From an uncultured virus (IMG/VR IMGVR_UViG_3300025789_000021) (lineage: Duplodnaviria; Heunggongvirae; Uroviricota; Caudoviricetes), in the IMG/VR virus record IMGVR_UViG_3300025789_000021: DNA of 20,000 bases, one strand, 5' to 3'. The number at the start of each line of letters is the position of its first letter. The first letter of the stretch is position 1. The notes below the pieces were generated by a model. It was not told the DNA's origin. It worked only from the letters and a program-made list of their open reading frames with translations, and searched no databases. Both the position numbers and the translations under genes were made by a program. Shown here piece by piece: positions 1,327-18,675 of the stretch.

Positions 1327-3123
1327 ATGGCATATAAAAAGAAATTTGTAAATAAGAGCGGGGTTTCTTCGCCAATCTCTGGTGCAAACAGTAATGCAGG
1401 CGCTTGGAATGGCTCGCCCGGTCAAAACGGAATGCCAACTGGTGGCTGGAACAACGATGACTTTGGGTATAAGAACTACATGTCTAGGCTTCCAGAAGTC
1501 TACACAGGTCACCCAAATAGAGTTGAACGTTACAATCAGTATGAAATGATGGATGTTGATGCTGAAATCAACGCCTGTTTAGACATTCTTGCTGAATTTT
1601 CTACTCAGCGCAATGAACATAACAAGACTCCATTTGAAATTGAATTTAAAGATGATCCAACTCCCCACGAAGTAGAATTGCTTACTAAACAGTTGCAACA
1701 GTGGTCAAAACTAAATGAATTTGACGTTCGCATGTTCAAGGTATTCAGAAACGTGGTAAAGTATGGCGATCAGGTTTTCGTGCGTGACCCAGAAACATTT
1801 AAATTATTTTGGATTGACATGGTTAAGGTTATCAAGGTCATTGTTAATGAATCCGAAGGTAAGAAACCAGAACAATATGTAATTAAAGACATCAATATCA
1901 ATTTACAAAACCTCAGCGCGGCACAGAAGACTAATACTGACTTTGCTGCTAATCCCGCAACTGGTCTTGGTGGTTCTGGTGGAGGAACCAATACTCCATA
2001 TACTGTTCCAGCAATGCCTTACAATACCTCTGGATCAAGATTTACTCTTGGACAGTCTGAATCGGCAATTGATGCTAAGCACGTAGTTCACCTATCATTG
2101 ACAGAAGGACTTGATCGTTTCTGGCCATTTGGGCAGTCTATTCTTGAAAACATCTTCAAGGTTTACAAGCAAAAAGAACTGCTTGAAGATGCAGTCCTTA
2201 TCTATCGTGTTCAAAGAGCACCAGAACGAAGAGTATTTAAAATTGACGTAGGTAATATGCCATCACACATGGCAATGGCATTTGTTGATCGCGTCAAGAA
2301 TGAAATTCACCAAAGACGTATTCCTTCTGTTTATGGTGGATCATCTGTAGTTGACGCAAGTTATAATCCACTCTCAATGAACGAAGATTATTTCTTTCCA
2401 GTTACAGCAGAAGGTCGCGGTTCAACTGTTGATATTCTTCCGGGTGGACAGAATCTTGGTGAAATTGATGACTTGAAATATTTTAATAATCGTCTTGCGC
2501 GTGGTCTCCGTGTTCCAAGCTCATATCTACCAACTGGACCCGATGATAATACTACTCCAATGAATGACGGGCGTGTTGGCACAGCGATGATTCAGGAATT
2601 TAGATTTAACCAATACTGTGAACGACTGCAAAATTATATTTGTTTGAAATTGGATGAAGAGTTTAAACTTTTCCTCCGTTGGAGAGGATTTAATATTGAT
2701 CCCGGTTTATTTGGTATTAAATTTAACGCACCACAAAATTTTGCGTCATATCGTCAATCAGAAATGGATAGTGCTCGCGTTTCAACTTTTGCAACAATGG
2801 AATCCTTTCCGTATATATCAAAACGCTTTGCTCTTGAAAGATTCTTAGGTCTTACCGAAGAAGAAATTAAGAAAAATGAAAAGATGTGGAATGAAGAAAA
2901 TGCTGATGATATGCTTAATGAACCACAAGGTTCTGATTTGAGAAACATTGGTATATCTACTGGTGATTTCCAAGCAGATTCAGATACGGCAGATCAGATT
3001 GACCAAGCATCGCAACAAGGACCAGAAAGTGAAATGGGAGTAGCTGGGCCAGTTGCGTCCGATGTTGGTGGTGCAGTTGCCGCAGGCGGCGGCGCAGCCG
3101 CTGGTCCATTGGGGAATAGTTAA
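1327..3123 (+). CDS. g20: Portal vertex protein (T4 gp20 family)
   Basis: 598 aa with hallmark motifs LEDAVLIYRVQRAPERRVFKIDVGNMP and MNEDYFFP...EGRGSTVDILPGGQNLGEIDDLKYF; first gene of the head module. Confidence 0.97.
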   Translation: MAYKKKFVNKSGVSSPISGANSNAGAWNGSPGQNGMPTGGWNNDDFGYKNYMSRLPEVYTGHPNRVERYNQYEMMDVDAEINACLDILAEFSTQRNEHNKTPFEIEFKDDPTPHEVELLTKQLQQWSKLNEFDVRMFKVFRNVVKYGDQVFVRDPETFKLFWIDMVKVIKVIVNESEGKKPEQYVIKDININLQNLSAAQKTNTDFAANPATGLGGSGGGTNTPYTVPAMPYNTSGSRFTLGQSESAIDAKHVVHLSLTEGLDRFWPFGQSILENIFKVYKQKELLEDAVLIYRVQRAPERRVFKIDVGNMPSHMAMAFVDRVKNEIHQRRIPSVYGGSSVVDASYNPLSMNEDYFFPVTAEGRGSTVDILPGGQNLGEIDDLKYFNNRLARGLRVPSSYLPTGPDDNTTPMNDGRVGTAMIQEFRFNQYCERLQNYICLKLDEEFKLFLRWRGFNIDPGLFGIKFNAPQNFASYRQSEMDSARVSTFATMESFPYISKRFALERFLGLTEEEIKKNEKMWNEENADDMLNEPQGSDLRNIGISTGDFQADSDTADQIDQASQQGPESEMGVAGPVASDVGGAVAAGGGAAAGPLGNS

Positions 3124-3130
3124 TCAGGGA

Positions 3131-3136
3131 TAAATA
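3131..3136 (+). promoter_or_regulatory. Late promoter motif TAAATA, 5 nt before ATG 3142
   Basis: GATAAATAGTTATATG. Confidence 0.65.
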
Positions 3137-3141
3137 GTTAT

Positions 3142-3384
3142 ATGAAACTAAATGAAATGTTTGCACCACCAATAAATGGTTTACAGGATGTCAACTCTGA
3201 CAATAGCAGACCCGCGTGGAGAACATCCCGTAAAACTAAATTAACATTAACGCAAATACGTAAACTACGCCGTATGTTAGATTTAAGAAATTACGAGCGT
3301 AAAAAACACTTAGAAAAAGTGCGTAAACAATATGGTGCTAAGCCAGAAGTCGGAGCAAGTATGGCTCCTCCAGCAATTGCATAA
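3142..3384 (+). CDS. Small basic prohead protein (positional equivalent of T4 gp67/gp68)
   Basis: 80 aa, R/K-rich (RKTKLTLTQIRKLRRM...QYG), between portal and core genes; begins MKLNEM. Confidence 0.7.
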   Translation: MKLNEMFAPPINGLQDVNSDNSRPAWRTSRKTKLTLTQIRKLRRMLDLRNYERKKHLEKVRKQYGAKPEVGASMAPPAIA

Positions 3385-3436
3385 TCATAAAAATCAAAAA
3401 ACACACACTTATTGAGTTGTTTTCTTGCATATGGGT

Positions 3437-3442
3437 TAAATA
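3437..3442 (+). promoter_or_regulatory. Late promoter motif TAAATA upstream of the core/protease/scaffold/capsid genes
   Basis: GTTAAATA in the gap, followed by RBS AGGAG (3465-3469) and ATG 3478. Confidence 0.6.
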
Positions 3443-3477
3443 TATTCACAAAGCCATTTGTATCAGGAGACAATTTA

Positions 3478-4323
3478 ATGGATATTAGAAAATACGAAAA
3501 GTTGATCAATTTAGTTATCAACGAAGACCAAGCAGCAGCAGACGCACTTTTCCACGAAATCGTAGTTGAAAAATCACGCGAAATCTTTGAATCAATCATG
3601 GCTGACGAAGACATGATGGACGAAGGTATGGGTGGACAAGTTGGCGATATGCTTGACGAAATTAATGCCGAAGAAGCAGGTGTCACCGAAGAAGAAGATA
3701 TTGACTTTGATCAGGACATGGAAATGGACGACATGGACGACATGGACGGCATTGATATGGATGATGAACACGAAGACGACATGGGACACATGGAACATGA
3801 AGAAATTGAAGATGCCGTAATTCGCATTGAAGACAAACTTGACCAGTTGATGGCTGAATTTGAAGACATCATGGGCGGCGACAAAATGGACCACATGGAT
3901 GATGAAGACGAAGATGCTGACATGGGAGACGATGATCAGGACTTTGGTAACGACGAAGAAGAACCAATGATGGAAAACGTCAATCTTCATAAAGTTTCAG
4001 TAACTCACGGCGACAACGGTCAAAACACCAAGTCTACTGTAGCATTTAACTCAGGCCAATCAGGAATGGACAGTCGTCCAGTTAAGTTCTCTGGCGATGC
4101 AGAATCAGTCCCTACCAGCCCTAAGAAGCCAAGTGATTACTTGACCAAAGGCGAAGGAAATCTTCCGGGCGCAGGAAATTTCAAAAACGTACCGGGAAAG
4201 AATAATTTCAAAGAAAAGGGCGACACTGCACCTAAGCCAAAGCATGGTGATGATGGATCAAACTTCCGTAGTCCAGTAGCAGAATCACGTAATCGTGCTC
4301 CTACTCGTAGACCACAGCGTTAA
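3478..4323 (+). CDS. Acidic prohead core / internal scaffolding protein
   Basis: Start moved to ATG 3478 because of the AGGAG RBS. Helical N-terminus (ALFHEIVVEKSREIFESIM), very D/E/M-rich middle, basic low-complexity tail; lies between portal and protease. Confidence 0.75.
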   Translation: MDIRKYEKLINLVINEDQAAADALFHEIVVEKSREIFESIMADEDMMDEGMGGQVGDMLDEINAEEAGVTEEEDIDFDQDMEMDDMDDMDGIDMDDEHEDDMGHMEHEEIEDAVIRIEDKLDQLMAEFEDIMGGDKMDHMDDEDEDADMGDDDQDFGNDEEEPMMENVNLHKVSVTHGDNGQNTKSTVAFNSGQSGMDSRPVKFSGDAESVPTSPKKPSDYLTKGEGNLPGAGNFKNVPGKNNFKEKGDTAPKPKHGDDGSNFRSPVAESRNRAPTRRPQR

Positions 4324-4329
4324 TAGGAA

Positions 4330-4437
4330 TCTGAAAGCAGATGGCTTTGCTGTATCAGAGAAATGAGAAACAGACAACCGCTAAGTCGGGGCTGTTTACG
4401 AGTGAATGGGTCCGTATTAATACGGACCCATATGCTC
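4330..4437 (+). other. Structured intergenic region: three consecutive hairpins including a perfect 26-bp palindrome (4406-4431)
   Basis: TCTGA..AGCA/TGCT..TCAGA (4330-4359); AAACAG..CCG/CGG..CTGTTT (4368-4397); ATGGGTCCGTATTAATACGGACCCAT (4406-4431), extendable by GAGT/GCTC to 4400-4437. Confidence 0.7.
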
Positions 4438-4467
4438 TATCTGATCAGAAATCAAAGGAAATTTACA

Positions 4468-5109
4468 ATGATTCCTAATAGAAAAATATTACAAGAATTC
4501 TTGTCACCGTTAGCATCAAACACGATAATTGAATCGGTTGATACAGGTAACGGAAAAAATTTATACATGAAGGGTATATTCATTCAGGGAAACGTCAAGA
4601 ACGCAAATGAAAGAATATATCCAGTTGAAGAAATCAACAGAGCAGTCAGAACACTAAACGAACAAATAACCAATGGATATTCTGTTTTAGGTGAAGTTGA
4701 CCATCCTGATGATCTTAAAATTAACCTAGACCGCGTTAGTCACTGCATTACCACTATGGATATGGATGGACCAAACGGCGTAGGTAAATTAAAAATTCTC
4801 CCAACTCCAATGGGTGATCTTGTCAAGACAATGTTGGAGTCGGGTGTCAAGCTAGGTGTATCAAGTCGTGGTTCGGGTAACGTAAGCGACATGGATGGCC
4901 GCGTCAGTGATTTTGAAATAATCACTGTAGATATTGTTGCACAACCAAGTGCTCCAAACGCATATCCCAAGGCAATTTATGAAGGACTTCTGAATATGAA
5001 GTACGGACATAAGGCACTTGAGATTGCCAAAGAAGCACAAGGCAACAAACAAGTACAGAGATACCTTGCTGAGGAAGTAAAACGCCTCATCAATGATCTT
5101 AAATTATAA
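4468..5109 (+). CDS. g21: Prohead core protease (T4 gp21 family)
   Basis: Motifs GIFIQG..KNANERIYP, LGEVDHP (catalytic His), GVSSRGSG (catalytic Ser) and TVDIVAQPSAP. The start at ATG 4468 has RBS AAGGA at 4455-4459. Confidence 0.95.
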   Translation: MIPNRKILQEFLSPLASNTIIESVDTGNGKNLYMKGIFIQGNVKNANERIYPVEEINRAVRTLNEQITNGYSVLGEVDHPDDLKINLDRVSHCITTMDMDGPNGVGKLKILPTPMGDLVKTMLESGVKLGVSSRGSGNVSDMDGRVSDFEIITVDIVAQPSAPNAYPKAIYEGLLNMKYGHKALEIAKEAQGNKQVQRYLAEEVKRLINDLKL

Positions 5110-5121
5110 AGGGGACTAAGC

Positions 5122-6228
5122 ATGCTAGATGCCATAAAGCCATTACTAGAAAGCGGTCTTATCAACGAAGACGTAGGCAGAGAATTAAACGAAGCCTGGG
5201 AATCTAAGTTGAATGAAGCCCGTAATCAAGTTCGTGCAGAACTTCATGAAGAATTTGCACAACGCTATGAACACGATAGAATGGTTATGGTAGAATCCCT
5301 TGATAAGATGATTACCGCTCATCTCGCAGATGAAATTTCAGAATTCGCATCTGAGAGAGCAGCAATGAATGAAGACAGAGTAAAAAATCAAATTAAACTG
5401 CGTGAAAGTGCAACTAAGTTCAATGATTTCATGGTTACTAAATTAGCCGAAGAAATTCGTGAACTTCGTTCAGATCGTAAAGTTCAGATGGAAAATCAGA
5501 AGAAGTTGGAACAATTTATTGTTCATGCTTTGGCTCGTGAAATCAAAGAATTTGCTATTGATAGAGAAGCAGTTGTTGAAGCAAAAGTCAAGCTCGTTGC
5601 TGAAGGTCGCCAACAAATTGAAGCACTTAAGGACAAATTCGTTACTGAAAGTGCCAAGAAAGTCAGCACCATGGTTGGAAATCACCTCAAGGGTGAACTA
5701 TCACAACTAAAAGAAGACATTAAAATCGCAAGAGAAAACAATTTCGGTCGCAAGATTTTCGAATCCTTCGCAAGTGAATTCTCAGTAACTTATCTAAATG
5801 ATAAGGCTGAAACTCGCAAGGTAATGAATGCTCTTGTAGCAAAAGACCGTCAACTTGCAGAAGCCAAATCTCAGTTGCAGAAAGCAGCTAAGATCGTTGA
5901 AAGCAAGGAACGTGAAGTTCGCATTATTAAGGAATCAACTCAACGTGAGAAGACAATGGAAGACCTATTGTCAACTCTCAATGACGAAAAAGCCTCAGTA
6001 ATGAGAAGTTTACTTGAAAGCGTTCAGACACCTAAATTGAAGAACGCATTCGACAAATATTTACCAGCGGTACTTAATACCGGTTCAACACAAAAGGCCC
6101 AAAAGACCTCATTGACTGAATCCGTTATTGCAGAGGCAACTGGTAATAAAACTGTCCAGAAACCAATTGAGATTGATACATACGAAAAAGATAACGTAAT
6201 CGATCTTAAGCGCCTGGCAGGGCTATAA
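5122..6228 (+). CDS. g22: Prohead scaffolding protein (T4 gp22-like)
   Basis: 368 aa, E/K-rich coiled coil with many L/I-x-E sites, ending RLAGL; lies between protease and capsid; GGGG RBS. Confidence 0.85.
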   Translation: MLDAIKPLLESGLINEDVGRELNEAWESKLNEARNQVRAELHEEFAQRYEHDRMVMVESLDKMITAHLADEISEFASERAAMNEDRVKNQIKLRESATKFNDFMVTKLAEEIRELRSDRKVQMENQKKLEQFIVHALAREIKEFAIDREAVVEAKVKLVAEGRQQIEALKDKFVTESAKKVSTMVGNHLKGELSQLKEDIKIARENNFGRKIFESFASEFSVTYLNDKAETRKVMNALVAKDRQLAEAKSQLQKAAKIVESKEREVRIIKESTQREKTMEDLLSTLNDEKASVMRSLLESVQTPKLKNAFDKYLPAVLNTGSTQKAQKTSLTESVIAEATGNKTVQKPIEIDTYEKDNVIDLKRLAGL

Positions 6229-6253: not shown

Positions 6254-7450
6254 ATGTCAAAAGTACTATTAGAAAGCCGTTGGGGCGAAACAAAAGATGC
6301 TCTGCTTGAAGGCTTAAAGGGCAATCGTCGCTCAACAATGGGTGTTATCCTTGAAAATACTAAAAAGCAGTTGCTTGCAGAATCTTCTGCTGGCACGACT
6401 ACTGCTGGTAATATCGCAACTCTAAACCGCGTTATTCTTCCAGTTATTCGCCGTGTTATGCCAACTGTTATTGCAAACGAACTCGTAGGCGTTCAGCCAA
6501 TGACTGGTCCAGTTGGACAGATTCACACTCTTCGTGTTCGTTACGCTCAGTCATTGACTGACAACTCAGCAGCACAGACTTCGGTCGTTGCTGGTGAAGA
6601 AGCACTTTCACCATTCAAGATCGCGCAGGCATATTCCCGCGTACCAGCAGCAACTACAAGCACTAATTATTACACTGGTGCGGACACTGCTTCACTTGAA
6701 GGCGACGGTGGTAAGCAGATCAGCGTACAAATCCTCAGACAGGCTGTTGAAGCCAAGTCACGTAAATTGCAAGCACGTTGGACTTTTGAAGCTGCTCAGG
6801 ACGCTCAATCACAACACGGGATTGACGTTGAAGCAGAAATCATGGCAGCACTTGCACAGGAAATTACTGCTGAAATCGATCAGGAAATCTTGCTTTCATT
6901 GGCAACTCTTGCATCAACTGAATACACCTTCAACCAAGCAACTGTTTCAGGTACTGCTACTTACGTTGGTGACGAACATGCTGCTCTTGCTGTTCTTATC
7001 AACCGCGTTGCAAACTTGATCGCACAGCGCACTCGTCGCGGTGCAGGTAATTGGGCTGTTGTTTCACCAGCATCATTGACTGTTCTTCAATCAGCAACTA
7101 CTTCTGCATTTGCACGTACAACAGAAGGTACATTTGAAGCTCCAACTAACACCAAGTTCGTTGGTACTTTGAATGGTGCAATGCGCGTATTCGTTAACTC
7201 ATATGCACCTGACACTCAGCCAGTATTGGTTGGTTATAAGGGTTCATCTGAAACTGACGCAGCAGCGTTCTATTGCCCATACATTCCGTTGATGTCATCT
7301 GGCGTTGTCCTTGATCCGTCAACTTTCGAACCAGTCGTAAGCTTTATGACGCGCTACGGATATATCGAGCTTACCAACACTGCCTCAAGTTTTGGGAATG
7401 CTGCGGATTACGTTGGAGAAATTGCGGTCCAAAATTTGACGTTCCAATAA
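6254..7450 (+). CDS. g23: Major capsid protein (T4 gp23 family)
   Basis: Motifs PVIRRVMP..IANELVGVQPMTGPVGQI, VEAKSRKLQARWTFEAAQD..HGIDVEAE, VGYKG..DAAAFYCPYIPL and FEPVVSFMTRYG. Strong AGGAG RBS and codon bias typical of a highly expressed gene. Confidence 0.98.
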   Translation: MSKVLLESRWGETKDALLEGLKGNRRSTMGVILENTKKQLLAESSAGTTTAGNIATLNRVILPVIRRVMPTVIANELVGVQPMTGPVGQIHTLRVRYAQSLTDNSAAQTSVVAGEEALSPFKIAQAYSRVPAATTSTNYYTGADTASLEGDGGKQISVQILRQAVEAKSRKLQARWTFEAAQDAQSQHGIDVEAEIMAALAQEITAEIDQEILLSLATLASTEYTFNQATVSGTATYVGDEHAALAVLINRVANLIAQRTRRGAGNWAVVSPASLTVLQSATTSAFARTTEGTFEAPTNTKFVGTLNGAMRVFVNSYAPDTQPVLVGYKGSSETDAAAFYCPYIPLMSSGVVLDPSTFEPVVSFMTRYGYIELTNTASSFGNAADYVGEIAVQNLTFQ

Positions 7451-7488
7451 GTTTAACACAACTTATTACGAAAGTAAAGCAAAAAAAT

Positions 7489-7527
7489 GGAAAAGGAGAG
7501 AAGAAATTCTCTCCTTTTCTTTTGTTT
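7489..7527 (+). terminator. Rho-independent terminator after g23
   Basis: GAAAAGGAGAGAA-GAAA-TTCTCTCCTTTTC: a perfect stem with a GAAA tetraloop, followed by TTTTGTTT. Confidence 0.9.
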
Positions 7528-7531
7528 ATAA

Positions 7532-7560
7532 TTGACAAATGCTGCTGACTATGATAAATA
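7532..7560 (+). promoter_or_regulatory. Promoter of the homing endonuclease: late motif TAAATA (7555-7560), with TTGACA 17 nt upstream
   Basis: TTGACA at 7532-7537, TAAATA at 7555-7560, ATG at 7566; directly after the terminator. Confidence 0.55.
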
Positions 7561-7565
7561 AAAGT

Positions 7566-8366
7566 ATGAAACATTTTATTTACAAAACAACTCACAAAAA
7601 CGGCAAATACTATATTGGCAGACATAGCACCGACAACATAGAAGATGGTTATGTTGGGTCAGGTAAATGGCCATTGTCCATTAAAGATAAATCATCACTG
7701 ACTCGTGAAATATTGGAGTTTGTTGATGATTTTGACACGCTGGTTAAACGTGAAGGCGAATATCTCACAGAACATTATGGTAAACCCAATTGCATGAATA
7801 ATAACATTGATCCCATTGGATTTGATTCCGGTGATAATAATCCGATGCGAAATCCCGAGATAGCGGCAAAGATATCCGGAGATAATCACTGGCTAAAGCG
7901 AAATCCGGAAAGAAAAGAAGATTTTAGGAACCAACAGCTTAATAGGGTTAAAGACGGGAGTCACAATTTTTTGGGAAACGATAATCCAAACAAAGATGGA
8001 AGAAACGCCAAATTGGCATATGAACGTGGAACACACAATACCTTGACTAACAACCCATCAACCGTAAATGCTACTAATGGGACACACCATTGGCAAGATG
8101 GTAAAAGTCCAAACTACCAAGGAAAACTTAATAAAAGGTTAGTTGAAGAAGGTCGTCATAATTTCCTTGGTCCGGAGTTGAATCAGAAACGGATTGATGA
8201 AGGAAATCATAATCTTGTTGGATCAGACACGAATCTTAAAATGTTAGCCGAAGGTAAACATCCATCACAACAAAAGAAAACCTGTGAACATTGTGGAAAA
8301 ACTGCGAGTGTTGGGATGTATAAACGTTGGCACGGTGATAACTGTAAGAACAATAAGGACAAGTGA
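7566..8366 (+). CDS. Free-standing GIY-YIG homing endonuclease (Seg-like) with C-terminal Zn-finger
   Basis: N-terminal FIYKTT..NGKYYIGRHST...DGYVGSG...REILE..(E)...N matches the GIY-YIG domain. It also has a GDNNPM motif, G-x-H repeats and a C-terminal CEHC...H..NC. The start is likelier ATG 7566 than 7539. Confidence 0.88.
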   Translation: MKHFIYKTTHKNGKYYIGRHSTDNIEDGYVGSGKWPLSIKDKSSLTREILEFVDDFDTLVKREGEYLTEHYGKPNCMNNNIDPIGFDSGDNNPMRNPEIAAKISGDNHWLKRNPERKEDFRNQQLNRVKDGSHNFLGNDNPNKDGRNAKLAYERGTHNTLTNNPSTVNATNGTHHWQDGKSPNYQGKLNKRLVEEGRHNFLGPELNQKRIDEGNHNLVGSDTNLKMLAEGKHPSQQKKTCEHCGKTASVGMYKRWHGDNCKNNKDK

Positions 8367-8368
8367 AT

Positions 8369-8533
8369 ATGAATGAAGAAGAGCCAATCAACGAATATAA
8401 AAAGGAACCACAGATGCTCACTAAAGAGTTCTGTGAAGAATTGGTGCGGAGAGGAAAAGAAAATATAGAAAAATCTACACAAGCACTTAAGGAACTATAT
8501 CAAGAACTGGGAATTTCGGATGAAGATCAATGA
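8369..8533 (+). CDS. Small acidic hypothetical protein, 54 aa (not in the ORF track)
   Basis: MNEEEPINEYKKEPQMLTKEFCEELVRRGKENIEKSTQALKELYQELGISDEDQ. AAGGA RBS at 8355-8359; fills the gap and overlaps the next start. Confidence 0.65.
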   Translation: MNEEEPINEYKKEPQMLTKEFCEELVRRGKENIEKSTQALKELYQELGISDEDQ

Positions 8534-8816
8534 AATTACTGAAAAGAATATGGTTTGGAAAAATCTTATGGAGTTTGACTTTGACTTTGATACAGAATAT
8601 AACAATGCAGAAAATTTCTCACGAATAGTACTTAAGGTTAAACACCGAAACAAATATCAGATAGCACATGAGTTAATGGATCACTTCAATAGCCGCGCCA
8701 AAGATTTCATTGATGCTAACCCATTTGATCCTACTGACCCAGATATCATTGCGCTACAAAATAAAGTGAGAAAGATGATTGCCAATTTGAATCAACTTGC
8801 TACGCAACTTATTTAA
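8520..8816 (+). CDS. Hypothetical helical protein with MKINEITE leader (candidate internal head protein)
   Basis: 98-aa ORF in the operon; its N-terminal motif is shared with neighbouring genes. Confidence 0.7.
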   Translation: MKINEITEKNMVWKNLMEFDFDFDTEYNNAENFSRIVLKVKHRNKYQIAHELMDHFNSRAKDFIDANPFDPTDPDIIALQNKVRKMIANLNQLATQLI

Positions 8817-8829
8817 AGGAAAAGATGAA

Positions 8830-9084
8830 ATGAAAGACAATGAGTGTGTTGAAATCCTTGAAGACGGAACAGTATATTACTTTGATCTGGATGTATGCAA
8901 CAGAGAAGCAGAAAAGGCAATTGAAGAACTTCACATGAAAGAAGGAGTACTTCCAAACTTTGACTATACTTCATCAATTTTCACTCTCTTTATAAGTTCC
9001 ATTCAAATCCTTAGTCAGTCTGGCTGGACAACGGATGAATTACTACAGGAAGTTCTGAACCATTCAGAAGCCGAAGATGAGTAA
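8830..9084 (+). CDS. Small acidic hypothetical protein, 84 aa
   Basis: ATG 8830 follows AAGGA (8816-8820); its stop overlaps the next start (TAATG). Confidence 0.7.
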   Translation: MKDNECVEILEDGTVYYFDLDVCNREAEKAIEELHMKEGVLPNFDYTSSIFTLFISSIQILSQSGWTTDELLQEVLNHSEAEDE

Positions 9085-9638
9085 TGAAAATCAGTGAAAT
9101 GACAATGAGAGGACCAGACCTCTCAAAACAGGCAGAACAATTTGTACAAAACAATAAAGACCAATGGTATAAAAATGGTAAACATGTAGCAGACATTGAA
9201 GACTTTAAAGTCTTACATGATGGTAGTAACTATTATTCATTGTGGGATGATACAGCTTTCGTGGCATGTTGTTCGCTAACAGACGAGAACACCGTAGATA
9301 ACGTTTATGTTAGTCCAGATTACAGAGGCAAGAAGATTTTGTCAATGTTATTGTGGTTTTTTAAGACCAGACTAAATCGTTCACCATTAATTTTGGGTAG
9401 TGTTCATTCTAAGGATATGCAGGAAGTTATCAAGGGACTATCACGTTTTAACAAATACTGGCACAATGTGAATACCGGAGAGAATGCGCCTTTTAGTATA
9501 GACACACTGGATAAATTTTATAGCTATGTAGAGGTCACACCATGGCGTCTCGTATTGGAAAATGACGGTGAGTTTAACTGGCCGATGTATAATGGTGGTG
9601 GATTTGTTAAGGAGGCATATGAGCCATACATAGACTAA
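9084..9638 (+). CDS. GNAT-fold acetyltransferase-like protein with MKISE leader
   Basis: VDNVYVSPDYRGKKILSMLL resembles GNAT motif A (V-x-P-x-Y-R-G-x-G, second Gly replaced), preceded by beta-strands YYSLWD..FVACCSL. Confidence 0.6.
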   Translation: MKISEMTMRGPDLSKQAEQFVQNNKDQWYKNGKHVADIEDFKVLHDGSNYYSLWDDTAFVACCSLTDENTVDNVYVSPDYRGKKILSMLLWFFKTRLNRSPLILGSVHSKDMQEVIKGLSRFNKYWHNVNTGENAPFSIDTLDKFYSYVEVTPWRLVLENDGEFNWPMYNGGGFVKEAYEPYID

Positions 9639-9641
9639 ATA
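9636..9641 (+). promoter_or_regulatory. Late promoter motif TAAATA overlapping the GNAT stop codon, 4 nt before kinase 1 ATG
   Basis: GACTAAATACATCATG; no Shine-Dalgarno sequence near the ATG. Confidence 0.6.
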
Positions 9642-9645
9642 CATC

Positions 9646-10206
9646 ATGCGTATATCAGAACTCCTCACAGAATCAGAAATCTTGGATGAAATCAGTCGTC
9701 CTCATTTAATGGATGCAAGAGATATTCTTAGAAGAGCCGGATACAAACAATTAGGTTCCGGAACCTTTGCATATGTATACGCTAAACAGGATGCTCCAAA
9801 TTGTCTTAAACTATTTGTAGCAAAGGACACGGCCTATATTGAATTTATTAATCTTGCAATGAGTAATCCCAATCCGCACTTTCCTAAGTTTAAAGGTAAG
9901 TTGATGAAGATAACAAATCATTACTACGCCATTCAAATGGAAAGATTATCTCCCATTGACTATGTAGAAATGCGTACTATGATGTACGCAATTGACAATT
10001 ATACCTCTGATATTTACTATAGTGGCAAGGCAAGTGATGCTTCTTTAGCAAACATGGAAGAAGTTGAAAAGAAGCAGCCGGGAATTACTAAAGCTTGCGA
10101 GGCTATAGCAACAACCATCACGCGTGGAAGATCGTTAGATATGCACCGTGGAAACTTCATGATGCGTGGAAATGTTCTGGTTATTACTGATCCGGTGGCA
10201 TGTTAA
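9646..10206 (+). CDS. Protein kinase 1, resembling the T7 gp0.7 catalytic domain
   Basis: Gly-loop LGSGTFAYVY, catalytic Lys in CLKLF, hinge IQMERL, catalytic loop DMHRGNFM, and terminal ITDPV. Confidence 0.85.
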   Translation: MRISELLTESEILDEISRPHLMDARDILRRAGYKQLGSGTFAYVYAKQDAPNCLKLFVAKDTAYIEFINLAMSNPNPHFPKFKGKLMKITNHYYAIQMERLSPIDYVEMRTMMYAIDNYTSDIYYSGKASDASLANMEEVEKKQPGITKACEAIATTITRGRSLDMHRGNFMMRGNVLVITDPVAC

Positions 10207-10458
10207 TATGAAAATAACAGAACTCCTCACAGAATCAGAGATATTGGACGAAATAAGCCGACCAAAACGTTCAGAAGCACATAATATTCTTATGAATGCA
10301 GGCTATGAAATGTTGGGTTATGGAATATTTGCTAATGTGTATGCTAAGCCCGGTGAAAATGGTGTCCTCAAACTTTTTGATTCCGAAGACGAAGCATATC
10401 AGAAATTTGTTTATATGGCAATGAGTAATCCCAATCCGCACTTTCCTAAGTTTAAAGG
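9656..10458 (+). repeat. Identical DNA blocks shared by the two kinase genes (offset 562 bp)
   Basis: 22-mer CAGAACTCCTCACAGAATCAGA at 9656-9677 and 10218-10239; 41-mer GCAATGAGTAATCCCAATCCGCACTTTCCTAAGTTTAAAGG at 9856-9896 and 10418-10458. Confidence 0.92.
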
Positions 10459-10777
10459 CAAGATGATGAAGATAACGGACGAATACTACGCGATTCGTAT
10501 GGAAAAATTGACTCCTTTACCCGATACACCAGATACTGCATCATATGCAAAAAAGATTTCAGCATATGTTAAACTGATACAGAACAAATCGGGGCGAATA
10601 CGATCTGATGCCGACGAATTGATAAGTGATATTGACGAGATTGAAAAAGAACAGCCCGGAATTAAATATGCCTGTAATATGATTGGGAACAGGTTTAAAG
10701 AAGAAATCATAGACATTCACAACGATAATATCATGCTGCGAGGAAACATATTGGTTATAACTGATCCAGTTATCTAA
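10208..10777 (+). CDS. Protein kinase 2, tandem paralogue of kinase 1
   Basis: Start moved to ATG 10208 (MKITELLTESEILDEISRP, aligned with kinase 1). Motifs LGYGIFANVY, VLKLF, IRMEKL, DIHNDNIM and ITDPV. Confidence 0.85.
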   Translation: MKITELLTESEILDEISRPKRSEAHNILMNAGYEMLGYGIFANVYAKPGENGVLKLFDSEDEAYQKFVYMAMSNPNPHFPKFKGKMMKITDEYYAIRMEKLTPLPDTPDTASYAKKISAYVKLIQNKSGRIRSDADELISDIDEIEKEQPGIKYACNMIGNRFKEEIIDIHNDNIMLRGNILVITDPVI

Positions 10778-10788
10778 CCGTTTCGCGA

Positions 10789-10828
10789 TTGTCTTTGCAC
10801 TTCCTTAAATTTATACTAAGGCTAAATA
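10789..10828 (+). promoter_or_regulatory. Late motif TAAATA (10823-10828), preceded by a possible sigma70-like TTGTCT-17-TATACT
   Basis: TTGTCT at 10789-10794, TATACT at 10812-10817, then GCTAAATA. The sigma70 match may be chance in AT-rich DNA. Confidence 0.5.
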
Positions 10829-10853
10829 CAGTATAAGATAATGGAAGCAATAC

Positions 10854-12293
10854 ATGACATCACAGCCCTTTAACTCATTGAGTGGTTATACAGCAGGAAT
10901 TCCTCCAGTAAGAATAGTAGATGGCAACGGAAATGTTGTTACCAACGTCTTTACTTCTGGAAACGTTGCCGCTGGTGCCTTCTATTCTAATGATTATTTT
11001 TTAGCAAATGGTGCACCCTTTTCGGCTCCTGCTGGAGGCTCAAATACACAGATTCAATTTAATAATAATGGAATAAGTGGTGGTATTCCAAGCGTTACGT
11101 GGAATGGAAGTAAAATAAGTTTAGGTAACGTATCTAATGTTTCAATTGGTGGTGGTCTTAACGGCTATTTTTTACAGACTGATGGTTCTGGAAATCTAAC
11201 ATGGTCTCTCGGAGGAAGTGGAGGAAATGGATCACCGGGTGGTTCTAACACACAAGTCCAGTTTAATCAAAATGGTGCATTTGCTGGTGCTTCCGGGTTC
11301 ACATATAATACGAATAATAACACACTTTCTGTCACAGGAATAATAAATGCAGCAAATCTTGTTGCAACAAACATAAACACAACCGGAAATATCGTTAGTA
11401 ACTATTTTTCTGGCAATGGGGCAGGACTTACTGGAATTACAACACAATATGCAAATTACGTAACATCAAATTCCCAGCCAAACATTACCAGCACTGGAAC
11501 GCTAACAAACCTTTCAGTTTCAGGAAATATCATATCTTCACAGTATGTGAGTGCGGCAAATATCCAAACGGGTGGACAGACACAGACCGGAACATTAGTA
11601 GTTACCAATAATACTACCTTAAACGGCACTACGATTGGTCTTGGGCAGATAAACTTTACGAACTCGCCAAATATTTCACTCGGTCCAATCTCAAATTTGC
11701 ATATTTCTGGTGGTCTTAATGGCTATGTTCTCACTACCGATGGATTAGGCAATTTAAGTTGGGAAGTCGGCGGCGGGGGCGGCGGGGGAAACACTTCTCC
11801 CGGTGGGTCAAACTCACAGGTCCAGTTCAATTCAAATGGATTGTTTGGTGGAAGCCCATATCTTACATATGATAATTTTGCGCATGCTCTTACCGTTGGT
11901 GGAAACTTAATTGCAAATGCATTACAAATTGGTTCTGGTGTATATGAATTCTCAACATCAGAGGTCTATTTTGCGTCAACTGTTAGCACAACTCCCAATC
12001 AAGTATTGTTTAGTATTCCGGTACAAAACATATCTGGTGTAGATTTCCATATTATTGCTACTGATACAATTGCCAACACAAGACAGTCAGCTAAAATTTC
12101 ATCTTTATATTACGCCGGAATGGTATCTTATACTGAATATGCAGGCTTACAAATCAATGGCGGAGTTGGGCAATTTGACGTTACTTATTATGCCGGAAAT
12201 GTTATAACTCCCCCTGCCGTGCAGCTTTTGGTTAATCCAGATACGTCAAACTCCATTGTATATAGAATGCAAATCACCGTATATGCTGGATAA
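10854..12293 (+). CDS. Virion fibre / structural protein 1
   Basis: 479 aa, G/N/S/T-rich. Three GGSN(T/S)Q(I/V)QFNxNG repeats, two GGLNGYxLxTDGxGNLxW repeats, and a beta-rich C-terminal domain. Confidence 0.8.
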   Translation: MTSQPFNSLSGYTAGIPPVRIVDGNGNVVTNVFTSGNVAAGAFYSNDYFLANGAPFSAPAGGSNTQIQFNNNGISGGIPSVTWNGSKISLGNVSNVSIGGGLNGYFLQTDGSGNLTWSLGGSGGNGSPGGSNTQVQFNQNGAFAGASGFTYNTNNNTLSVTGIINAANLVATNINTTGNIVSNYFSGNGAGLTGITTQYANYVTSNSQPNITSTGTLTNLSVSGNIISSQYVSAANIQTGGQTQTGTLVVTNNTTLNGTTIGLGQINFTNSPNISLGPISNLHISGGLNGYVLTTDGLGNLSWEVGGGGGGGNTSPGGSNSQVQFNSNGLFGGSPYLTYDNFAHALTVGGNLIANALQIGSGVYEFSTSEVYFASTVSTTPNQVLFSIPVQNISGVDFHIIATDTIANTRQSAKISSLYYAGMVSYTEYAGLQINGGVGQFDVTYYAGNVITPPAVQLLVNPDTSNSIVYRMQITVYAG

Positions 12294-17727: not shown

Positions 17728-18609
17728 ATGCCAAGAATTAGTACATTAGGTAATGGTAGCGCAAAAGGTTATGGATTCGGTGCTAAAGTAAGTTCTGGTG
17801 GCGGTGCTACAGGTTCAGTCACATATTCTACTCCTGGTTCTTATTGCTGGACTGCTCCCGCTTGCGTAACATCTGTATCAGTAGTTGCTGTTGGCGGCGG
17901 CGGTGGTGGATCAAATCCAACTAGAGTATGTATAGGCGGATGTTTTTGTTATGTAGACGGAGGCGGAGGCGGAGGCGGCGGATTAGGATATTACAACAAC
18001 TATACCGTAATCCCAGGATCAAACTACAGGGTAGTGGTAGGAGCAAAAGGAACTGGCGGCAGTCCTGCAGGCTGTGGTAGTCCTCTTAAAAATGGTAATG
18101 CAGGCGGCGATAGTTATTTTGTAAGCACATCTCTCGTTAAAGGTGGTGGTGGTAGTGGTGGCACTACGGCAGCGGGCGGAACCGGTGGTGTTCATGTAGG
18201 AACTGGCGGCGGTAATGGCGGCAAAGGCGGCAACGGATGTTATAGTGGATGTGTACTGAATGTCACAGGTGGCGGCGCAGCAGGATATTCGGGAAACGGG
18301 GGAAATGGGAACTTTGCGGCACCAACAGGAGGAGGCGCGGGTGGTGGATGTAGGTATGGTTTCTATCATGGCGGCGGCGGTGTCGGGTTATTAGGGCAGG
18401 GAACAAGTGGTGGTGTTGGACGAGGCGGTTCTGGTGGAGGCAACGCCTCAGGAGGAACATATGGGACATGCGGTGCGCCCTACGGCGGCGGCGGCGGTGC
18501 TTCTAGATGCTTTACACTTCCGGGTTCAAACGGAGCATGTGGTGCAGTGCGTATCGTCTGGCCAGGTACGACTAGACAATTCCCATCAACTTGTGTTGGT
18601 GCACCATAA
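17728..18609 (+). CDS. Glycine-rich, cysteine-rich adhesin-like virion protein
   Basis: 293 aa with WTAPAxVTSVSVVAVGGGGGG...GAVRIVW framing many poly-Gly runs, a polyglycine-II-type domain conceptually like T-even gp38; 13 Cys. Confidence 0.7.
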   Translation: MPRISTLGNGSAKGYGFGAKVSSGGGATGSVTYSTPGSYCWTAPACVTSVSVVAVGGGGGGSNPTRVCIGGCFCYVDGGGGGGGGLGYYNNYTVIPGSNYRVVVGAKGTGGSPAGCGSPLKNGNAGGDSYFVSTSLVKGGGGSGGTTAAGGTGGVHVGTGGGNGGKGGNGCYSGCVLNVTGGGAAGYSGNGGNGNFAAPTGGGAGGGCRYGFYHGGGGVGLLGQGTSGGVGRGGSGGGNASGGTYGTCGAPYGGGGGASRCFTLPGSNGACGAVRIVWPGTTRQFPSTCVGAP

Positions 18610-18642: not shown

Positions 18643-18675
18643 CTTTCATATGATATAAATTTGGGATGTGAAATT

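Follow-up and report, generated by a model that had tools for sequence, protein, structure and literature searches.

A shared N-terminal leader in a clade of uncultured jumbo phages may be a T4-type capsid-targeting propeptide borne by kinases and other candidate head cargo

Here we describe a short N-terminal leader shared by unrelated proteins that are encoded just downstream of the major capsid gene in 20,000 nucleotides of DNA from an uncultured virus (IMG/VR IMGVR_UViG_3300025789_000021), a stretch referred to at its full length as the window. Profile matches to the window proteins place in it the T4-type head module of an uncultured jumbo phage, and the leader opens two candidate kinases, a GNAT-like protein and a small helical protein encoded behind this module. 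The leader is a portable element which ends in the motif of the T4-type prohead protease, lies outside the protein fold, is under selection at the peptide level and resembles the propeptide of T4 gp24. We consider it somewhat probable that the shared N-termini are T4-type capsid-targeting propeptides that would be removed by the family S77 protease of the same phage. The leader-bearing genes of the cluster and their associated elements are the following.

8520..8816, + strand: 98-amino-acid helical protein of no known family, with an 8-residue leader, MKINEITE, at 8520-8543
9084..9638, + strand: divergent GNAT-like protein of 184 amino acids (PF00583, 22.6 bits against a cut-off of 20.7)
9084-9098, + strand: 5-residue leader of the GNAT-like protein, MKISE, directly before the conserved core MTMRGP
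9635..9641, + strand: CTAAATA, a heptamer resembling a T4 late promoter and lying 4 nt upstream of the kinase 1 ATG
9646..10206, + strand: protein kinase 1, T7 gp0.7-like (phrog_15752, E 4.6e-18)
9646-9690, + strand: leader of kinase 1, MRISELLTESEILDE, 15 residues, with I/L-x-E at E5, E9 and E15
10208..10777, + strand: protein kinase 2, a tandem paralogue of kinase 1 (phrog_15752, E 4.6e-12)
10208-10252, + strand: leader of kinase 2, MKITELLTESEILDE

The open reading frames (ORFs) at 8520, 9084, 9646 and 10208 and the head-module protein encoded at 3142 all begin with M[KR][IL]xE, and the N-termini on which the original prediction was built (MKINEITE at 8520, MKISEM at 9084, MRISELLTESEILDE at 9646, MKITELLTESEILDE at 10208 and MKLNEM at 3142) are indeed encoded there. 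Its remark that other window proteins lack the motif likewise holds for the fibres (10854, 12334 and 15380), the glycine-rich protein at 17728, the oxygenase at 18661, the endonuclease at 7539 and the small ORFs at 8363 and 8797/8830. Because the two kinases, which are 52% identical, are paralogous, they amount to one independent case of the motif, so that the window proteins with this start represent four families. Leader variants are, however, seen across the kinase and GNAT-like families, and for this reason the four N-termini can be identified from their sequences as 5-, 8- and 15-residue forms of one clade-wide portable leader system. The forms are of 5 (MKIxE), 8 (MKIxE[IL]xE), 10 (MKIxE[IL][IL]xE-S) and 15 residues (continuing ..SExLDE), each ending in (I/L)-x-E; the 10-residue form occurs as MKITELLTES and MRISELLTES here and as MKINELLNES in a close relative, G001.

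To place the leader in a wider context, we scanned IMG/VR with a DNA pattern for MKI[NTK]E[ILMF][ILMF][NTK]E followed by a WSN codon, which matched at least 119 stretches, and fetched 80 of these loci. At 73 of the 80 the match opens an ORF of at least 67 amino acids (67 of the 73 with at most one upstream in-frame start), and at the other seven it lies in frames of 9-12 amino acids. By blastp of their mature parts (1e-5), the 73 leader ORFs form at least 22 families, mostly of unknown type, with one NUDIX hydrolase, one metalloprotease-like protein and several glycine-zipper proteins among them, compared with 17 stretches and 3 families for a scrambled control pattern of the same codon classes. 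For the 22 larger leader contigs, we divided the number of bases by CheckV completeness to estimate genome size; 21 estimates fall at 346-380 kb and the remaining one at 479 kb, whereas two contigs on which only the short chance frames occur give about 165 kb. Most of the 22 are small fragments; 7 encode an S77 protease, among them five of the six with a completeness of at least 30%. The leader family thus appears to belong to uncultured jumbo phages that form a clade, have T4-type heads and are about 350 kb in size.

The window sits inside an 81.6-kb virus contig. Judged by the capsid protein, its nearest cultured relatives are jumbo phages, namely Vibrio phage 2.275.O (67%), PA5oct (66%) and the GAP32/BF group. 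Among uncultured phages, G001 stands much closer: this IMG/VR record of 333 kb, at 92% completeness, shares 95% capsid identity. G001 has three tandem kinases directly after the capsid gene and an endonuclease, and carries at least seven full leader genes. Leader use varies between genomes: in G003, a second near-complete relative of 345 kb whose capsid protein is 75% identical, the leader is complete on a single gene and partial on a few, and genes for the kinase and the GNAT-like protein are absent. Megablast of window positions 8300-10900 against phages returned zero matches. Within G001, a same-strand run of leader-like starts at 28780-44849 (L008-L009) comprises MKIREIITES (DUF6267), MKINDICES, MRFREFLIE, MRANEFITES, MRANEFIVET and MKINELLNES, and may be a cargo island. 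On the window contig, outside the window at coordinate 31184 (- strand), a 198-amino-acid ORF starts with MRIYELLESAID, one residue shorter than the 10-residue form, and gATAAATAcaagATG precedes its start. At another locus (L105, 1501-2100), a NUDIX hydrolase combines the leader with an extension, basic and glycine-rich, of some 66 residues. This extension is not shared, since alignments with the homologues in PA5oct (gp161) and G001 begin at about residue 58-67, and there is no leader at the start of the G001 ORF; a known enzyme family thus seems to have acquired the tag.

The simplest alternative is that the likeness arose by chance and paralogy, MK-I being a common start and only the two kinases truly sharing a leader. 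The kinases are indeed tandem paralogues, and the motif spans only five residues in the GNAT-like and gp67-position proteins. Yet the 10-residue form occurs on at least 22 unrelated families against 3 for the scrambled control, and 64 of 101 GNAT-like clusters keep the leader. Scans of the contig and of G001, with T4 as comparison, show M[KR][IL]xE starts to be commoner than random. On the window contig, 4 of 64 longest-start ORFs in a greedy ORF list match, or 5 if kinase 2 begins at the ATG at 10208, as its homologues do, whereas in T4 none of 409 first-ATG ORFs matches. Position-wise residue frequencies would predict 1.14 such starts among the 437 ORFs of G001, and 8 are seen (Poisson P 2.6e-5, rising to 1.2e-3 if the three kinase paralogues are treated as a single case). 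The longer pattern [KR][IL]xE[ILMF][ILMF]xE occurs six times in all six frames of G001, five of them right behind a start Met, and a 10-position leader score is bimodal over this genome, with five starts at 10, one at 9 and one at 8, set apart from a tail of 17 at 7 and 36 at 6; no T4 start scores 8 or more. These counts already disfavour chance on sequence statistics, and we regard it as most improbable.

The kinases provide the clearest view of the leader on an enzyme. As originally proposed, both can be read as protein kinases: each matches phrog_15752, which is of the gp0.7 type, and the predicted structure of kinase 1 has a protein-kinase-like fold. The AlphaFold model of kinase 1 has a predicted local distance difference test score (pLDDT) of 89.8, and Foldseek returned a probability of 1.0 to Ser/Thr protein kinases and APH enzymes with template modelling scores of only 0.33-0.43; database homologues of the kinases carry the precomputed label PF27024. 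K55, D165, N170 and D182, which we take to be the kinase catalytic residues (the catalytic Lys, the Asp-x-x-x-x-Asn loop and the metal-binding Asp), are invariant across 29 kinase sequences, and both kinases are predicted to be catalytically intact. M[KR][IV]xE opens 25 of the 29 homologues, which carry MRISELLxESExLDEIxRP with E15 and P19 invariant, and two distant homologues have the short form MK-[IL][TN]E-[IL].. instead. In a further homologue, P0018 (317 amino acids), an N-terminal extension of about 125 residues leaves the second half of the leader internal, which points either to a fusion or to a gene call running through from an upstream ORF. The leader lies outside the fold: in the kinase 1 model the pLDDT is 48 for residues 1-10, 62 for residues 11-20 and at least 85 thereafter, residues 1-20 being the sole low-confidence part, and the kinase fold begins at about residue 21. 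Of the 19 leader codons, seven have changed synonymously and two conservatively between the two kinases, which are about 50% identical over the remainder of the protein. Such synonymous change with the residues kept argues against a signal at the RNA level.

The GNAT-like family displays the leader in several lengths. Sixty-four of its 101 clusters begin with a leader, of 5 (32 clusters), 8 (25), 9 (4) or 10 (3) residues, and all of these leaders adjoin the conserved MTMRGP core; the remaining clusters comprise six with the leader inside a longer gene call, 19 called from the core and 12 called otherwise. E is the final residue in all 32 leaders of more than five residues, a feature that the search pattern did not impose. 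In the structural model of the window protein, residues 1-10 have a pLDDT of 45. The protein had been called a GNAT acetyltransferase, of which only a divergent GNAT-like fold can be retained. The PF00583 match is marginal and covers residues 36-92 only, the best Foldseek E-value is 0.017, and the best VIA-align Z-score is 7.7, below the tool's confidence bar of 8, with acetyl- or acyltransferases in 43 of the 50 listed titles. GNAT enzymes bind acetyl-CoA through the motif Q/R-x-x-G-x-G/A, and at the expected place the window protein has Y-R-G-K-K-I-L. Since both motif glycines are replaced, we refer to the protein as GNAT-like, with uncertain activity.

The leader of the 98-amino-acid protein, MKINEITE, is identical to the 8-residue leader of one GNAT-like homologue. 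A homologue search with this protein returned its own cluster only, and the look-alikes in the Atlas are generic helical bundles below its bars; in view of this lack of family and homologues, we assign it no function.

The original prediction compared the leader with the N-terminal targeting sequence of T4 IPIII, MKTYQEFIAE. The parallel with T4 propeptides stands, but the closest counterpart is a different protein, gp24, whose N-terminus MAKINELLRES (NC_000866) is a near copy of the 10-residue leader. KINELLRES of gp24 compares with KINELLNES, KITELLTES and RISELLTES, in each case at the extreme N-terminus, over about 10 residues and with L-x-E then Ser; gp24, the T4 vertex protein, has its propeptide removed by gp21, presumably with the cut exactly after Glu10. 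The T4 gene also follows g23 and a homing endonuclease. In T4, however, the tag sits on a capsid-shell paralogue, whereas here it is found on enzymes and on at least 22 unrelated families. A gp24 paralogue as the leader carrier was considered and rejected, as none was found in G001 or in the window contig, each of which has a single match to the major capsid protein (MCP). The T4 genome has three ATG frames of at least 40 codons that match M.{0,2}[KRE][IL].E[ILMF], of which only gp24 lies at a true ORF start. In the T4 record, Alt starts with (M)MELITELFDE, and IPII and IPIII both start with MKTYQEFIAE.

Work on T4 offers a framework for such a tag. T4 gp21 is stated to cut after L/I-X-E (PMC9026906), and propeptides on the internal proteins (IPs), 10-19 residues long, are described as targeting proteins into the core and named capsid-targeting sequences (CTSs; PMC9026906). 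The same term is applied to the 10-20-residue N-terminal propeptides of gp24 and the IPs, with Alt cut at ITE-6 (PMC5694885), and the ip genes of T-even phages were found through their shared signal sequence (PMC12373910). A review suggests that CTS loading is possibly a general route for T4-like phages to load proteins. Like the CTS of IPI-III and the propeptide of Alt, the leader described here is a short N-terminal tag common to unrelated proteins that ends in L/I-x-E. The T4 CTS is reported to be needed for loading into the prohead core and to be removed by gp21, with the cargo then injected (PMC9026906, PMC5694885, PMC12373910). Alt provides a precedent for an enzyme as cargo. The two systems differ in that the IP sequence MKTYQEFIAE is unlike the leader, which here comes in several length classes, and in that T-even cargo consists of small restriction inhibitors and one ADP-ribosyltransferase, compared with candidate kinases, a GNAT-like protein, a NUDIX hydrolase and many unknowns here.

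The window also encodes a candidate for the enzyme that would remove the leaders. The head module and the elements between it and the leader cluster are arranged as follows.

1327-3123: portal protein (PF07230)
3142..3384, + strand: 80-amino-acid head-module protein at the T4 gp67 position (phrog_13986), starting MKLNE, the 5-residue leader form
3412-4323: acidic protein
4432..5109, + strand: T4-type prohead core serine protease, Peptidase_S77 (PF03420, E 6.4e-25; phrog_207, E 7.6e-58)
5122..6228, + strand: scaffold at the gp22 position (phrog_10922), with an N-terminus, MLDAIKPLLES, that contains LLE-10
6254..7450, + strand: MCP, Gp23 family (PF07068, E 1.9e-97)
7489..7520, + strand: intrinsic terminator-like hairpin with a 14-bp stem, directly after the capsid gene and upstream of the candidate cargo cluster
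7539..8366, + strand: homing endonuclease (phrog_314, E 6.3e-22), at the same position as segD in T4 (g23-g24)

The S77 protease at 4432-5109 is presumed to be the enzyme that removes the leaders. Its ORF is open from 4363, and the start was put at 4432 from an alignment with six relatives. Against the same six relatives, 4432-4500 holds a 15-residue insertion near the N-terminus, and the ORF remains open 23 codons further upstream. The I/L-x-E sites of the leaders (ISE-5, ITE-8, LTE-9 and LDE-15) are of the same kind as those in the capsid protein (LAE-43) and the scaffold (LLE-10), in agreement with the original observation. The predicted maturation site of the capsid protein is L41-A42-E43 | S44, and the corresponding position in nine of nine relatives likewise has L-x-E with S or N as the next residue; L-x-E also occurs within the first 10 residues of the protease and scaffold N-termini in most relatives. 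A complex prediction of the protease with kinase residues 1-40 returned 'no answer' with a score of 0.00, which bears on binding neither way.

Taken together, these findings support the core of the earlier suggestion, a head-targeting, protease-removable leader, as the likelier explanation: the N-termini recur on at least 22 families in S77-encoding phages, end in (I/L)-x-E, lie outside the fold and are gp24-like. During core assembly, the leader would bring its protein into the prohead core, where the S77 protease would cut after the terminal (I/L)-x-E and free the mature enzyme within the head. By analogy with T4 IPI-III and Alt, the cargo could then stay with the DNA and be ejected on infection. 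In the window, this cargo would consist of the two gp0.7-like kinases, the divergent GNAT-like protein and the 98-amino-acid helical protein.

Several observations weigh against capsid targeting, and some of them favour a selected N-terminal tag with another role, such as translation initiation, stability or localisation, on enzymes that are made after infection and serve host takeover in the cytoplasm. T7-type gp0.7 kinases are early cytoplasmic enzymes, and the leader is missing from the kinase homologues of T7-like phages and of DLP_6, a T4-like phage. The cluster sits behind a strong terminator that follows the capsid gene. The tagged genes of G001 are scattered, and metabolic-type enzymes are among their products (an NT5C nucleotidase, a NUDIX hydrolase). 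In PA5oct, no virion-protein flag is attached to gp271, which is homologous to one leader family, or to gp155-158, the untagged genes that occupy the locus of this cluster. MK followed by A/T-rich codons is a common translation start context, the leader of the GNAT-like protein has only five residues, and the start of the 98-amino-acid ORF is uncertain, with an alternative at Met11 (8550). Its sole database cluster, which is its own, is called from Met11 at 88 amino acids, and the Atlas holds the 98-amino-acid form letter for letter. Vibrio phage 2.275.O (67% MCP identity) has no leader gene, with a best score of 7 out of 10, so the system is not a general property of the wider group; neither 2.275.O nor PA5oct provides a close cultured model. 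A tag with another role, however, does not predict the (I/L)-x-E end in every length class, the near-identity to the gp24 propeptide or the restriction to phages with an S77 protease, and the synonymous changes under conserved leader residues speak against an RNA-level signal. We therefore judge this alternative rather unlikely.

Virion data from PA5oct bear on the capsid-targeting explanation from both sides. Four of its six annotated coding sequences (CDSs) that start with M[KR][IL]x[ED] are flagged by electrospray ionisation tandem mass spectrometry (gp150, gp205, gp230 and gp381; not gp075 and gp382), against a background of 93 of 461 CDSs according to the abstract of PMC7318152. As a surrogate test, the enrichment has a hypergeometric P of 0.017, or 0.033 with gp271 added. 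A further reason for caution is that this enrichment rests on six to seven genes and that virion proteins include tail parts. Only gp150 and gp271 reach a leader score of at least 8 in PA5oct, and the MKIKEIILEN start of gp271 lies five codons inside the annotated start.

Another explanation accepts core loading and cutting by the protease but has the cargo act within the head, where it could for instance modify head or internal proteins, or be degraded and expelled like T4 gp67, gp68 and gp22, without an injected arsenal. The protein at 3142, in the gp67 position, has the same 5-residue form, and its counterparts in relatives start with MKLVELFE, MKINDIITE (PA5oct, a structural protein detected by mass spectrometry) and MNLNEMF; T4 gp67 is cut into fragments according to PMC9026906. 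The small, helical 98-amino-acid protein, which has no enzyme family, would also fit such a role. Against this stand the invariance of the kinase catalytic residues in all 29 sequences and the case of T4 Alt, a packaged enzyme with such a propeptide that is reported to be ejected and to act on the host (PMC9026906). On this evidence we find it improbable that the cargo never leaves the head in active form.

The timing of expression had been argued from a TAAATA late motif upstream of kinase 1. The motif is present, as CTAAATA that ends 4 nt from the ATG, but the argument for late expression is weak. TAAATA by itself shows no enrichment, with 42 sites on one strand and 60 on the other where base composition predicts about 66 on each, and the cluster lies behind the terminator. 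The suggested association of TAAATA with leader genes did not hold: it lies 3-7 nt upstream of only 8 of the 73 leader ORFs fetched from IMG/VR. In G001, TAAATA followed by ATG after 4-5 nt occurs on about 26 genes of many kinds and is not specific to tagged or structural genes, and we have rejected it as a mark of leader genes. In the window, the tagged genes are co-oriented with the head and fibre genes. A search for RNA runs over 7400-10900 came back empty. gATAAATAgttatATG precedes the gene at 3142, and the first G001 kinase is preceded by TATAAATAcagtaATG, with TATAAATA lying 5 nt before it.

The arrangement of TAAATA and ATG is of interest in its own right. In the window it is seen at 3125-3144 and 9635-9648, with the ATG after 4-5 nt, and it is recurrent in the clade. 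G001 has 31 TAAATA-ATG sites at a spacing of 5 nt (19 at ORF starts) and 10 at a spacing of 4 (7), compared with 2-9 (0-3 at ORF starts) for most other spacings between 0 and 15; spacing 3 is an outlier with 25 sites, one of them at an ORF start. In T4 the spacing peaks near 26-28 nt, with none at 4-5 nt at ORF starts, and PA5oct is without a peak. From a T4-type late promoter at such a distance, transcription would start on the AUG or next to it, so that late mRNAs in the clade may be leaderless. T4-style late promoters are plausible in the window phage because its contig, outside the window at -10181..-9276 (+ strand), has a 301-amino-acid ORF with a match to gp55, the late sigma factor of T4 (tblastn, E 5.4e-7).

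The surroundings of the cluster raise a few further points. The capsid gene is followed by the terminator-like hairpin, the homing endonuclease and six small genes, and then by the fibres from 10854. A homing endonuclease directly 3' of the capsid gene is found in the window (7539-8366), in G001 (L006, 4644-5417) and in T4 (106561-107232), and the three belong to different families: phrog_314 in the window, HNH-like by sequence reading in G001 and GIY-YIG in T4 segD. The next gene is g24 in T4, with its leader-like propeptide, and a leader-tagged kinase in G001. Elsewhere on the contig, outside the window at window coordinates -41164..-23378 (- strand), lies a single ORF of 5928 amino acids, flanked by ORFs of 1128, 1374 and 1104 amino acids.

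Two other known systems offer partial parallels. Phages of the phiKZ type (phiKZ, 201phi2-1 and SPN3US) are also jumbo phages in which a gp21-related prohead protease cuts many head proteins after the Glu of a short motif, and many of these proteins are ejected. They are described as differing in their motif (S/A/G-x-E), in propeptides that often exceed 100 residues, in having no short portable shared tag and in belonging to another lineage. The T7 gp0.7 kinase resembles the window kinases in that their mature parts match its family, with a protein-kinase fold and conserved catalytic residues. It is, however, an early gene product made in the cell, whereas the kinases here are minimal (a core of about 165 residues), tandem, located beside head genes and leader-tagged. 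In the literature we covered, mostly without subscription journals, we found no description of such leaders for T4-like phages of the jumbo or metagenomic kind and none of phage kinases packaged in virions. The concept itself has been known for T4 since the CTS work; what is new is a gp24-like leader family that comes in several lengths, is broadly distributed in uncultured jumbo phages and has enzymes such as kinases as its candidate cargo.

Finally, the gp24-propeptide-like leader might serve the clade, with genomes of about 350-380 kb, as a general address label, such that packaged and injected active kinases of the Ser/Thr type and an acyltransferase-like enzyme modify host proteins at DNA entry, ahead of all phage gene expression; the kinases would then be the first virion-delivered ones of a tailed phage. 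We put this forward tentatively, as an attractive possibility that we at present doubt more than we believe. Should capsid targeting prove wrong, many phage proteins would nonetheless carry a conserved N-terminal signal that lacks an explanation. If it is right, one could predict from sequence which proteins an entire clade of uncultured jumbo phages injects, and at least 22 cargo families, mostly of unknown function, would become candidates for host takeover or counter-defence in the first minute of infection. Packaged kinases would widen the repertoire of virion-delivered enzymes beyond T4 Alt and virion RNA polymerases, and a short natural tag of several lengths could be used to load foreign proteins into T4-type heads.

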